Assembly (NCBI GenBank): GCA_964016885.1
Contig: OZ024740.1
Coordinates: forward strand, 440,448,001-440,512,000
Direction of reading: 5' to 3'
Length of the DNA stretch: 64,000 nucleotides
From: Eledone cirrhosa
Taxonomy: Eukaryota
The notes beneath the pieces are model-generated. The model ran no database searches. It saw only the letters and a list, made by a program, of their open reading frames with translations, and had not been told where the DNA came from. Made by a program: the position numbers and the translations under genes. This document shows, one piece after another, positions 46,549 through 61,704 of this stretch; the stretch's first letter is position 1; each line of letters starts with the position of its first letter.

Positions 46549-47186
46549 CATTCTGTCATTATGTCTGTTTCGTGGTTAAATATTTCAAGCATATGTGGTT
46601 TTTCAACCCTTGTAATTTTAGACACACGGTTTACTGTGTTTCTTACTATATATTGTTAATCGGCTCAGTATTTATTTGTACTTTATACTTAGAGCTTAAT
46701 GGTTACAGGGTTCTAATTCTCATATATATATTTCTGCTCCCTTACAAGTTGAGCTATTAAGTTGTGCGTGTTGGACTGTTATTTCTGTTCAATACGCGCT
46801 TACCACGTTTGACTGGCGAAGCACGAGGTGATGAATTCATCTTTCTGTGTGAACGTTGGCAAATAGTGTTTGTGGCATTTAATCGCAATCTCTCGCTGAT
46901 GAAGCCCAGGATTATCTGTTACAAACACACTCAGGGCGAAACAGATTAGGGATAATCTGTCCGAGAGATATAATGGTTATTGAGGTTTGTATTATTATGA
47001 TAATATATTTTTATTTTCATTCTGTCATTCTGTCTGTTTCGTGGTTAAATATTTCAAGCATATGTGGTTTTTCAACCCTTGTAATTTTAGACACACGGTT
47101 TACTGTGTTTCTTACTATATATTGTTAATCGGCTCAGTATTTATTTGTACTTTATACTTAGAGCTTAATGGTTACAGGGTTCTAAT

Positions 47187-47199
<13 letters not shown>
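46549..47199 (+). mobile_element. Non-coding retrozyme-like / non-autonomous PLE-dependent element, 469-bp unit in partial tandem (~1.4 copies)
   Basis: 46549-46730 is repeated at 47018-47199 (period 469). The unit contains a type I hammerhead, has no credible ORF, and its 3' end runs into (TA)n. Confidence 0.75.
46888..46969 (+). ncRNA. Type I hammerhead ribozyme, canonical core with full stem III
   Basis: Stem I ATCTCTCG(46888-95)/CGAGAGAT(46962-69); core CTGATGA 46896-902 plus one extra A; stem II GCCC/GGGC with a long loop; GAAA 46938-41; stem III CAGATTA-GGGA-TAATCTG; GTC triplet with the predicted cut after 46961. Confidence 0.92.
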
Positions 47200-47231
<32 letters not shown>

Positions 47232-47236
<5 letters not shown>

Positions 47237-48123
47237 CATAAATCATGTCTTTAGAATCACCAGATATTAAAATATATACTATTTCTTCTTCTAATTAGCA
47301 TAATTAACCATATACAAAATCAAATCTAGCAAGCTTTAAGAATAAATTTTCTTATGGGGAAATCTCAGACAAACAATCGACCGTAGCCTCTTCGCGGTAG
47401 CCCCGTTCCATTATTTATCGAACATTTCGACAGCATGTAGACTTCGACCAAATATACCATCAACCACACACAATTAGTAGTAAAATTAAACTTAGAAGAA
47501 ATGCGCACGTACCGTAATTATATTCCTACCATGGTTTCTTCCTTATTTAGTACATCCAAATAATATGAATTTCCTGAGTTAGTTTCATCAGGGGATAAAC
47601 TCAAAATCAGACATTTTGTTTTTCAATCCGATCCCGCCAAATTTAGATTAAAAAATGGCTAAAAATCGCTATATAGCTGTGTTCCAGCCAGAGAGAAAGA
47701 GTGTGATTGGTTGCTTACGGCGGGTAGGCTTGCTGCTAGAAAGCGCAGCCATATATCGCCAAATTCAATCTCAACCAATTGGGAGATTATTAAATATAAA
47801 GGTTATCATATACATAAAATTAAAGATATATATATGTTGCAACCGTTCACTTTTAAGCTCTATGAAGAATTAATAAATTAAAATAAAAAAATCAGAGCAT
47901 TATATCATAAATCATGTCTTTAGAATCATCAGATATTATAATATATACTATTTCTTCTTCTAATTAGCATAAGTAACCATATACAAAATCAAATCTAGCA
48001 AGCTTTAAGAATAAATTTTCTTATGGGGAAATCTCTGACAAACAATCTCTGACAAACAATCGACCGTAGCCTCTGATTTTTTAATTTTAATTTATTAATT
48101 CTTCATAGAGCTTAAAAGTGAAC
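47232..48123 (-). mobile_element. Non-coding PLE-type element: 669-bp unit in partial tandem plus a short inverted arm, flanked by (TA)n
   Basis: 47232-47391 is directly repeated at 47901-48074 (period 669; the second copy has a 14-bp internal duplication). 48071-48123 is the reverse complement of 47845-47897, joined through CTCT microhomology. It shares TGCTCTG...CATAGAGCTTAA with the PLE tail at 52872-52898. Confidence 0.65.
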
Positions 48124-48293
48124 CTATATATATATATATATATACATACATGCACACACATATATATATATGTACGTATGGATTCACCGAACATTTATTA
48201 TAATGCTCGGTGTGTTTGTAAACAAACCTCCCGAATTAAGCCGTACAGTGTCTAGCATTCATCGTTGCTCATTTGTTCAACACTGACAGAGGA

Positions 48294-48336
48294 ACGCTGT
48301 ACTAGTTTCAAGCTTATTAGCTATCGTCAGCAACGT
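48294..48336 (-). ncRNA. Minimal type I hammerhead ribozyme (inverted copy)
   Basis: Reverse complement of 48784-48826. Confidence 0.72.
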
Positions 48337-48783
48337 ATACCTTCCTGCCAGATGATAGAACGTCTGAAAGTATATACTTTCCTTATGCATATTAACGGCT
48401 GAGCAGCCTAATTTGCATAGCGAGTGAGTTAATCGGCCGGGGTACCGAAAACGATAAACGGAAAAAATGAATCCTTACGGTGAATCCATACGTACATATA
48501 TATATAAATATATATATGTGCATGTATGTGTATATATATATATATATATATATACATACTACTGTACGTCTGTATACATATATGTATGTACGTATACATA
48601 CTTATATTTAAGTAACATCCGTACTAAGAGTGAGAAATGAAATTTCGTTTCATTTTTTCCGTTTATCGTTTTCGGTACCCCGGCCGATTAACTCACTCGA
48701 TATGCAAATTAGGCTGCTCAGCCGTTAATATGCATAAGGAAAGTATATACTTTCAGACGTTCCACCATCTGGCAGGAAGGTAT

Positions 48784-59469: not shown

Positions 59470-59505
<36 letters not shown>

Positions 59506-59592
59506 CCCCCAGCACCAACATACAGAAATACGACCCGTTCAGGTCGAAGGGTACATTGGCCCCGTAAGCTATGCAGTACTATAAACTTCTGA
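57051..59592 (+). pseudogene. pol: Gypsy pol: RT, RNase H, integrase (gag and protease missing; frameshifts near 59035 and 59275)
   Basis: [45 protein letters not shown] zinc finger; HVDIVGP/TDRG/NGMVER DDE core; PYSGPY motif. Domain order RT-RH-IN. Confidence 0.95.
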
Positions 59593-60053
59593 ATTGTATT
59601 CTTTTTTCTTGCAGTTATTTTTACTGTATATTGAATTTGTTGTTGCATTTTGTACCCTGACTGCCTTTGGTATTTTTAAGGCATATTATAATTTTTCATT
59701 GCATTTTGTAACCTTACTGCCTAAGGCATTTTCAATGCCTATCGTTTTTTTCATCGCATTTGGGACCCTTACTGCGAATGGTATTTTTAATGCATTTTGC
59801 ATTTATTGCTGCATGTGTATAATTATTGCATTTGTTGTATATGTTTTGTGTAATGCTTGCATGCATTAACCTATTTCACCTCTATATTGTTCGTTTTGAA
59901 ACCGGTTTCAACAACTTGTAAAGAGTACCTTGTAAGGCTTTGGCTTCATTGTTATATACTACAGGAATTTTTCTTGCACCAATTTACAACTTCTAGTTCC
60001 TCCATGCTATCGTTTGTTTTACGATTTTTATTAAAAATCTGGTCGGAGGTGAT

Positions 60054-60516
60054 TGTAGTAACTATGGCGACAGTGTGTTGACTATAGCAACGCAGTGTGG
60101 CCACCTGTGGGTAACACAAAAAAATAGCGAATTACTTCCCTTATCTCGGCGTTCTCTAAAAGAAGAGACGCCAATGTAAAACTCAAGAGATTTGGTTTAG
60201 AATTCCAGTCGCCTTTGTCCTGCCACGTGGACGTACTTTGTGAAAACGCCTGTTTTTGACCAAGAGATTTTCATATCTCTTCTTGAATGTAAGAATTAAG
60301 CCATTGCCGTTTAGCTTGCAGGGTATGTCCTATGAATGTAATTATTATGTCATGTTTTATTAAATGAATCATTTAATAAAAGATTAGCCTTGTTATCGTT
60401 AAAGCCCTTCTGTTTTAATTAATAATCTTAGAGAGATGAGATGTCGTTCACACACCTGGACGATTAGAGAGATGAGATGTCGTTCACACACCTGGACGAT
60501 ATAGCATTTTTCTTTA
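60054..60516 (+). repeat. 3' LTR of the Gypsy element (~463 bp)
   Basis: Starts TGTAGTAA after purine-rich GGAGGTGA; AATAAA near 60376; 36-bp internal tandem duplication at 60428/60464; ends in TA rather than CA before the TSD. Confidence 0.75.
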
Positions 60517-61235
60517 GGTCCATCATATCTGACATTCTCATCCTGTCCAAGATATCTGTAGTTGTCACCTGACTGTAGAGGTTGTATTGTCAGGCCGTTC
60601 ATCTTTAGATTTCTAGAGGAGGGCACAGCTCTTCCACGTTTTACTGCCAAATATGCACACTTGGACTCACCAAATTTCATTTTGATGTCTGTTGAAAATT
60701 GTGTAATGAGGTCCAATTGTTTCTTGATGTCATTGATATTTGGCCCATACAACTTCAGGTCATCAACAAAGAAAAGATGGGAGATACTTCTGGACCCACT
60801 TCTTTGTCCACCTTGTTTCCTGAGTCGGTAAGATAGTGGATTTAGTGAAAGAACGAAGAGTAGCACTGACAAGCTATCACCCTGAAAGATGCCCTTCTGG
60901 TAATGTATCTTTTCAGTCTTAACTTGCTCCTTCTCACCTCTAAGGATCAAATTGGTGTACCAGTTCTTGGTCAGGCGTTCAACAGCAGCTACCAATGGTT
61001 GTGGGACTTTGGCTAACTGTAAATCCTTAATAATCCACCCATGAGGTACACTATCAAATGCTTTTTGATAGTCCAGCCACAACCACAGTCATGTTTCTGC
61101 GATTTTTGTTGTTTTTTCCTAAATCATTTTATTAGTTAGTAGGTGATCTATGCAACCCCACACCTCCCTCTTTCCACCAGCTTGCTCAGGTGTTATGATG
61201 TTGTTGGTAGCACAGTGATCCTGTAAGAACAGGTT
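60517..61235 (-). pseudogene. R4/Dong-clade non-LTR retrotransposon, RT domain (5'-truncated)
   Basis: EQAGGK..WGCIDHLL; WLDYQKAFDSVPH; GIFQGDSLS.LLF; HLFFVDDLKLY; MKFGESKC; YRYLG. Stop and frameshift near 61085-61120; abuts (TATG)n. Confidence 0.92.
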
Positions 61236-61540
61236 ATGTATGTATACATATATGTGTGTATACATATATGTATGTATACATATATGTGAGTACACATATA
61301 TGTGTATACATATATGTATGTATACATATATATATACGTATACATATATGTGTACTTCAATATATGTGAGTACACATATATGTGAGTACACATACATGTC
61401 TGTATACATATATGTGTGTATACATATATGTGTGTATATATATGTGTGTGTATACATATATGTGTGTATCGATTTCCTGCTCACAACATTTCGGGTGAGA
61501 CTATCGCATAAATATACATATATATATATATATATATATA
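61236..61540. repeat. (TATG/TACA)n and (TA)n simple repeats
   Basis: Direct inspection. Confidence 0.9.
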
Positions 61541-61704
61541 CAATATATTAATTAATGGAAACTATATTTATAAAACCATAATTAAGTAGTTTCCATTTAT
61601 TAATATATTGTATATTTACTCCACTCAATCGTTGAGTGCTTTATATCAGTTATAAAAATGTTTAAGCTTGTTGAATGCCAACAAATTAAATATAACCTCT
61701 GCAC
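61539..61704 (+). mobile_element. Miniature PLE-type footprint: ~26-bp inverted arm + short sense arm + hairpin tail
   Basis: TACAATATATTAATTAATGGAAACTA (61539-64) is inverted at 61588-61612, followed by the tail shared with 53128-53216; flanked by TA/CA repeats. Confidence 0.6.

Follow-up and report, generated by a model that had tools for sequence, protein, structure and literature searches.

Elements at the locus

The window analysed here, the whole 64-kb stretch at positions 440,448,001 to 440,512,000 of contig OZ024740.1 from Eledone cirrhosa (assembly GCA_964016885.1, 3.0 Gb), consists in its first 46.5 kb (1-46539) of about 1,000 copies of a 46-bp satellite and from 46.5 to 62 kb of a nest of elements inserted in (TA)n. 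The nest holds a copy of a coding Penelope-like element (PLE), P1, two non-coding tandem elements of 469 and 669 bp (N469 and N669) and pieces of families S, Q and M (Table 1). Here, and in dispersed copies across the genome, elements of several families end at two fixed sites, A and B, each lying 0-10 nt 5' of its own hairpin, and inverted insertions pair one site with the other. The hairpins probably position two target-primed starts of reverse transcription on opposite strands of the target.

A sequence-only reading of the window had proposed that unrelated elements stop at an AT motif just before such a hairpin. The strings and coordinates it quoted are all present, and the arms stop where it placed them: the P1 arm (49005-49311) is the reverse complement of 52562-52868, the N669 arm ends at 47232, the second N469 copy at 47200, and the arm at 61539 before the hairpin at 61618. 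Its list of examples omitted the family Q hairpin at 53743-53723 (-).

Judged by its motifs, P1 is a Hydra-type PLE. It has one open reading frame (ORF) with a reverse transcriptase (RT) followed by a C-terminal GIY-YIG endonuclease (877-aa frames; YRDD and YVG motifs), and among about 110 matches listed in the genome, intact frames of 877-878 aa lie away from the window. The window copy runs from the end of the GIY-YIG ORF (49312-50064) through a long 3' untranslated region (UTR), hammerhead, site A, hairpin 1 and a 106-nt tail to its end at site B. The Hydra clade of C-terminal-endonuclease PLEs is characterised by DKT, an RW motif, a CxCX5C linker, absence of CCHH, a hammerhead, (TA)n insertion and a one-sided tail (Craig et al. 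2021, PMC8557442). P1 shares these, though its hammerhead has a variant core (below) in place of the canonical one, with DKT (SDKT) replacing DKG, an RW motif (RIRWR; RWK in P0101 and P0005), the linker together with CxxC and CxH, no CCHH, insertion into (TA)n and an inverted arm with the tail on a single side. It differs from that clade in length (~5.2 kb against generally <3 kb) and in the P1-type tail (60-110 nt against 30-40), and neither the doubled bulged hairpin nor the A+B pairing described below appears in the available text of the clade account (PMC8557442).

The GIY-YIG Pfam match was weak on the window fragment (ORF end to 50064), and the whole P1 ORF gave no match against Pfam; the closest named proteins are molluscan hypothetical proteins (40-45%). 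Throughout P1 copies the hammerhead bears U3-A8 instead of C3-G8 with full stems, whereas that of coding family P2 is canonical; cleavage is a prediction. The P1 hammerhead also occurs at 49056-49102 (-) in the inverted arm, and a second U3-A8-type descriptor match lies at 53541. At least five further coding families of the P1 type (P2-P6) are present in the genome. At another locus (G000:C2:219150946-219162226), three P1 matches spaced by ~5.26 kb point to whole elements arranged head to tail.

Table 1. Elements, end sites, hairpins and hammerheads in the nest, in window coordinates
Feature	Positions	Strand	Basis or remark
N469, 469-bp non-coding tandem unit, 1.4 units, ends at site B into (TA)n	46549..47200	+	end mapping; no ORF relic
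N469 hairpin 1, directly 3' of site A; second copy 47132-47164	46663..46695	+	11 inverted arms end here
N469 hairpin 2, directly 3' of site B (boundary of the sequence-only reading)	46736..46754	+	other-host model; 23 copy ends
N469 canonical type I hammerhead	46888..46975	+	descriptor match, stems 8/4/8 bp
N669, 669-bp non-coding tandem unit, 1.2 units, ends at site A; short opposite arm 48071-48125	47232..48047	-	end mapping; no valid hammerhead; no ORF relic
N669 hairpin 2, compensatory basal pair TCTC/GAGA, 3' of site B	47768..47787	-	junctions, end mapping, folding
N669 hairpin 1, long loop, TA bulge	47857..47898	-	strict descriptor; weak folding energy; 20 copy ends just upstream
Family M hammerhead element; further tail piece ~53000-53108	48125..48995	.	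two fixed ends, without NCUC/GAGN hairpin; counter-example
P1 inverted arm, same insertion, ends at site A into (TA)n	49005..49311	-	99% reverse complement of 52562-52868
P1 copy, 5'-truncated, Hydra-type PLE	49312..52974	+	weak GIY-YIG Pfam match; intact frames elsewhere; motifs
P1 type I hammerhead, U3-A8 core replacing C3-G8	52771..52817	+	descriptor match, stems 4/4/4 bp; putative activity
P1 site A, AT motif common to target repeat	52863..52868	+	25 copy ends in the set of 35 loci; 13/40 endonuclease-selected copies
P1 hairpin 1: GCTC stem, TGCG/CGCA upper stem, TA bulge, GAGC	52873..52894	+	strict descriptor, other-host model, folding
P1 site B; hairpin 2 next in intact copies, missing here since copy stops	52970..52976	+	L152, L153; 26/40 endonuclease-selected copies
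Family S tail-only stub, ends at site B; ACTC/GAGT hairpin 53133-53149	53125..53215	+	strict descriptor, other-host model
Inverted insertion of family Q, with a hammerhead core at 53816 (+) and a hairpin at 53743-53723 (-)	53686..53910	.	strict descriptor, other-host model, end mapping
Family S inverted insertion: arm to site A (61539) and arm with hairpin 61618-61637 to site B	61539..61703	+	L091, an A+B pair; other-host model

A doubled, bulged hairpin

The hairpin is built on a basal stem of 4 bp (NCUC/GAGN), above which two unpaired 3'-side nucleotides (UU, UC or UA) form a bulge; an upper stem of 1-5 bp and a loop that varies in length complete it. The sequence-only reading recognised the stem and missed the bulge, as well as the fact that intact elements hold two hairpins rather than one. 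In these, the hammerhead is followed after 40-60 nt by hairpin 1, then by a spacer and hairpin 2, and after another 15-60 nt by the ATG. This doubling was observed in P1, P2, P6, N469 and N669, while only hairpin 1 is visible in families S and Q, none of whose fetched copies reads through the far end. The basal pair changes in compensatory fashion, being G-C, A-U (P6 and S) or U-A (N669 and locus L339).

A strict descriptor, made post hoc, found five sites in 46.5-64 kb versus 0.12 in 100 dinucleotide shuffles (maximum 2). A covariance model built from other hosts alone gave six window matches at E<=5, the top five at 53717(-), 52867, 61612, 53127 and 46730, and misses the long-loop hairpins at 47898 and 46663. 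No curated Rfam model matches at the hairpins at E<=1; the Rfam scan of the window returned only microRNA look-alikes on TA repeats, which were discarded, and neither a hammerhead nor any hairpin family.

Copy ends fall at two sites

Ends were mapped in 30 loci per family, or 35 for P1 (taken around 44 matches), with site A defined as the position before hairpin 1 and site B as that before hairpin 2, or as the fixed far end in S and Q. The 3' ends lie at A or B in 52/52 cases for P1, 34/34 for N469, 36/39 for N669, 57/58 for S and 33/44 for Q, where nine of the 11 off-site ends are alignment overshoot into pure TA. In a less biased set of 40 P1 copies, taken from the top of an endonuclease search 2.9 kb upstream of the ends (two share a flank), 39 end at A (13) or B (26). 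Termini are thus fixed relative to the hairpin, as the sequence-only reading anticipated; for N469 the boundary it drew is a genuine copy end that proved to be site B, site A lying before the hairpin at 46663.

The AT motif beside the hairpin also behaves as proposed, since 3-10 nt of TA-like element sequence are common to element and target at the printed junctions with (TA)n, which is what priming by annealing would require. Site choice by microhomology alone was rejected, because 16 other TA-like stretches of 5-9 nt in the P1 3' UTR are passed over (used by at most 1/40 copies) although site B has merely 3 nt in common with the target.

These distances bear on whether the hairpin might instead be an element for ribonucleoprotein (RNP) assembly, export or translation, with ends set by AU microhomology in a protein-bound region and no ruler effect. 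Its place in the 5' UTR, 15-40 nt before the ATG, its distance from the junction, which varies by up to 10 nt, and a family that manages without it (M, below) would suit such a role. Nevertheless, each of the two hairpins has its own end <=10 nt away in families with spacings as different as 73, 106 and 112 nt, only two of 16 B-side ends make use of an AT run of 10 nt that lies 25-35 nt upstream of site B in N669, and the hairpin is kept in non-coding units, so that a role of this kind is considered very unlikely.

Inverted insertions pair A with B

Among 73 divergent pairs (eight more candidates were excluded for low coverage), 65 are A+B, one is B+B, none is A+A and seven have one unclassified end. 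As the S query lies inside the tail and the N469 query across site A, A+A pairs are not freely detectable in those sets; in the sets queried upstream of A (P1, N669 and Q), 37/43 are A+B, six are unclassified, and neither A+A nor B+B occurs. For P1 pairs, to which the comparison of arm lengths is confined, the A arm extends further upstream than the B arm in 12/20, which a fold-back copy made from the B cDNA could not do, and fold-back copying of one cDNA was rejected. Six of the 20 P1 B arms stop <=12 nt from site A, as predicted by collision on one RNA, and one stops inside the tail. In P2 (L159, L163, L165, L273-L278), the long copy mostly runs to site A and the short inverted arm to B, the reverse of the commoner P1 layout.

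The same pairs are relevant to a DNA-level alternative, in which the endonuclease recognises the hairpin in cDNA or a cruciform and trims the intermediate beside it, making the ends cut sites rather than starts. The tail has been suggested to arise from endonuclease resolution of an intermediate (Craig et al. 2021, PMC8557442), the D. virilis tail is cited as needed for endonuclease recognition (Frangieh et al. 2024, PMC11167929), and the stem can form on either strand, G-U pairs exceeding A-C pairs by only 4 to 0. This alternative appears unlikely, as the ends go straight into (TA)n with short common AT sequence, two primings account for B arms that halt at A as well as for A arms exceeding B arms in length, and the start sites of a Poseidon PLE in vitro match its genomic ends (PMC11167929).

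Conservation in other hosts

From 78 metagenome loci of related PLEs, 35 intact hammerhead-to-ATG regions were obtained, representing 23 families (<75% identity). Two hairpins were found in 19 families and one in three, compared with any hairpin in 0/23 ORF controls and 5/23 antisense controls. Hairpin anchors required the basal stem only, and basal pairing is thus by construction; its first pair is G-C in 39 and U-A in two, with A-U added by P6 and S of the own genome. The informative part is what lies above the bulge: the first upper pair forms in 41/41 hairpins with a 2-nt bulge versus 0/41, 0/41, 2/41 and 9/37 with 0, 1, 3 and 4 nt. Hairpin-1 upper pairs form in 22/22, 18/21 and 16/17, with 2-4 Watson-Crick types, above shuffles (p<=0.0002).

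The covariation alignment and model rest on 12 equal-length hairpins hand-picked from 44 candidates, as MAFFT of 42 mixed-length hairpins misaligned the 5' arms. In these 12, 98.8% of cells pair and 12 two-sided changes were counted, a level reached by 0/500 shuffles in a statistic that ignores relatedness. Among 17 3' copies in metagenome contigs, six end at A, three at B, two elsewhere and six at the contig end (9/11 scorable at A or B). In published consensi inspected by eye, the hairpin is seen in Hydra-1_Ajap (two copies), Hydra-2_Ajap and Hydra-2_Amil, from sea cucumber and coral (three clear of six), Hydra-1_Crog has a variant, and Hydra-1_Amil stops before the hairpin position. In a search of published PLE sequences for exact matches to a 9-mer, a weak test, four of the six matches lay in the Hydra file, and coding sequence of Naiad and of Chlamys held one apiece. 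On this comparative evidence the hairpin is a cis element of a known class of elements, conserved clade-wide and covarying, as the sequence-only reading expected of the stem.

Non-coding elements and stubs

N469 and N669 occur as head-to-tail units (N469 arrays reach seven) with >1,100 first-look candidates each and dispersed near-identical copies. Neither contains a Hydra ORF relic or resembles any of 39 Hydra end regions in nucleotide sequence, with E<=0.01 as the threshold in both comparisons; what they have in common with PLEs is only the hairpins and the end geometry, which names a candidate minimal signal. N469 is a tandem non-coding unit with a type I hammerhead, as in metazoan non-LTR (LTR, long terminal repeat) retrozymes that PLEs are believed to mobilise (Cervera and de la Pena 2020, PMC7229834). 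Unlike retrozymes (PMC7229834), N669 has no descriptor-valid hammerhead in its window unit or in 30 loci and is therefore filed as a non-autonomous PLE-type element; the description of these elements as ribozyme RNAs suits N469 and fails for N669. In N469, the order hammerhead, hairpin 1, hairpin 2 likewise speaks for descent over co-option.

Family S shows homology to the end of the coding family P6 (64% over 159 nt, E 7.5e-11), and in one of 30 S copies a same-strand endonuclease frame lies ~950 nt upstream. For these two reasons the pieces at 53128 and 61614 are probably stubs derived from a coding family, with an inherited hairpin, and descent is likelier than the co-option claimed for them. 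The window's P1 was not adopted as the driver of all small families, as six coding families with differing basal pairs coexist.

The S evidence would also be consistent with hairpins that are real signals in small families that are mere remnants of coding elements acting in cis, without any trans-mobilisation. N469 and N669 make this hardly credible, with their head-to-tail units, numbers and near-identical dispersed copies, and A+B insertions despite the absence of an ORF relic at that threshold; they are candidates for a real case of movement in trans.

Reports of retrozymes and non-autonomous PLEs (PMC7229834; Li et al. 2026, 10.64898/2026.07.22.740005; PMC8557442; Arkhipova 2013, PMC3846280) rest, in the texts available, on similarity of pseudo-long terminal repeats (pLTRs) or on co-occurrence, in contrast to N469 and N669, which share only hairpins and end geometry with PLEs.

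Neighbouring features

N469 begins at the edge of the 46-bp satellite. A Ty3/Gypsy-type pol frame (RT, RNase H, integrase) at 56985-59036 (+) lies between opposite-strand non-LTR retrotransposon pieces at 55768-57083 (-) and 60399-61088 (-). More short hammerhead-like stubs are located in (TA)n at 62290-62345 (-), 61783 (-) and 62620 (-); family copies of the first carry an ACTC/GAGT hairpin past their end.

A proposed model of twin priming

The hairpin is likely an RNA signal that would be bound by the element's protein and place the RT start on the AU-rich stretch just upstream. Nicks made by the endonuclease in the two strands of (TA)n would leave 3' ends, each annealing to an AU stretch of 3-10 nt next to one of the hairpins, so that one cDNA would start from A on one strand and one from B on the other. 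The two cDNAs would then be joined head to head. Two starts at A and B would result in an inverted insertion with the A-to-B tail (60-110 nt) on one side only. N469 and N669, having kept hairpins most likely inherited from old element ends, would be copied in trans by Hydra-type proteins. The ends, the doubling, the A+B pairing and the covariation are direct observations, whereas binding by the protein, action at the RNA level, twin priming and movement in trans belong to the model. A wider reading, given somewhat less than an even chance, is that the doubled hairpin is a portable template-positioning element of a telomerase-related RT, a protein dimer on both hairpins of one RNA priming both (TA)n strands at once, and that a ~25-nt hairpin with its AU stretch might be enough for any RNA in trans.

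Several observations weigh against this model. Family M has a hammerhead and two fixed ends 61 nt apart (16 pairs: 13 A+B, two A+A, one unclassified), yet no hairpin-model match below E 0.3 in six loci, and the A/B geometry thus does not need the NCUC/GAGN hairpin. The shared signature, found in several families as claimed, is not universal: in 1.77 Mb of own-genome DNA, 10/22 hammerhead clusters have the hairpin in at least two copies, a few of the 12 negative ones having a single hairpin copy or A-ended copies only. One of the 23 metagenome families and, by eye, the published Hydra-1_Obim consensus lack it. The hairpin-2 upper stem is not above shuffles (p 0.05-0.08), the strand evidence in metagenome hairpins is thin (G-U pairs 4, A-C 0), several hairpins fold weakly by themselves (z -0.6 to -1.5), and the copy at 61618 favours another folding register. 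In P1, 13/20 B arms pass site A, for which strand displacement or a second template is needed, and one of the 40 endonuclease-selected copies (L407) stops at a hairpin-less AT stretch with another element next. Lastly, the Poseidon protein primed at a site non-homologous to its target, as opposed to the annealing proposed here (PMC11167929).

Comparison with known systems

In vitro, Poseidon PAc of Anolis cuts and extends both strands, uses two internal starts that bound the tail and needs RNA ~55 nt beyond, and a dimer is predicted (Frangieh et al. 2024, PMC11167929); on these four points the proposed mechanism fits the published one. Two internal start sites equal to the genomic ends, use of both target strands and a requirement for RNA 3' of the start would be common to both systems, while AT microhomology with the target and a hairpin 3' of the start distinguish the present one from Poseidon (PMC11167929). 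By eye, the Poseidon template RNA (PMC11167929) contains a UCUC/GAGA stem (ORF positions ~+126 to +139) within the required RNA, at ~10 nt 3' from where the starts were mapped; it is single, unbulged and possibly due to chance.

Other parallels involve unrelated enzymes. L1 twin priming places two primers on one RNA and results in inversion, with internal starts as a side route at variable sites. The hepatitis B virus (HBV) epsilon element is a bulged hairpin that places priming, but it templates protein priming from the bulge itself. SART1Bm initiates internally at target-like sequence near 3' UTR stem-loops (PMC7265360), and here, too, the template would anneal to a target repeat near a stem-loop; its internal starts are nonetheless a side route at variable sites (PMC7265360), in contrast to the two fixed starts proposed here, each with a hairpin 3'.

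The tail, the arms in inverted orientation, the preference for (TA)n and the existence of non-autonomous PLEs (MRC1) were already reported by Craig et al. (2021, PMC8557442), pLTRs acting in trans by Arkhipova (2013, PMC3846280), and retrozymes and their PLE link by Cervera and de la Pena (2020, PMC7229834) and Li et al. (2026, 10.64898/2026.07.22.740005), the available text of the latter mentioning neither 'stem' nor 'hairpin'. No report of this hairpin was found in the literature searched or in Rfam, subscription papers and Repbase notes being outside the reach of the search. The hairpin cis element is therefore apparently undescribed so far, as distinct from internal initiation, the tail and PLE-driven retrozymes, which are already published.

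Implications

How PLEs insert, with a one-sided tail, inverted arms and a bias towards microsatellites, is a question recognised as unsolved in the field (Craig et al. 2021, PMC8557442; Frangieh et al. 2024, PMC11167929). A hairpin beside both ends would explain this long-unexplained end pattern and makes the insertion cycle open to direct mutational test. It would also supply a rule predicting which non-coding RNAs can be mobilised by a PLE, and may serve as a diagnostic mark when Hydra-type ends, and the non-autonomous partners of such elements, are annotated. As telomerase has PLE RTs for its sister group, an RNA element by which an internal template is fixed would be of wider interest.

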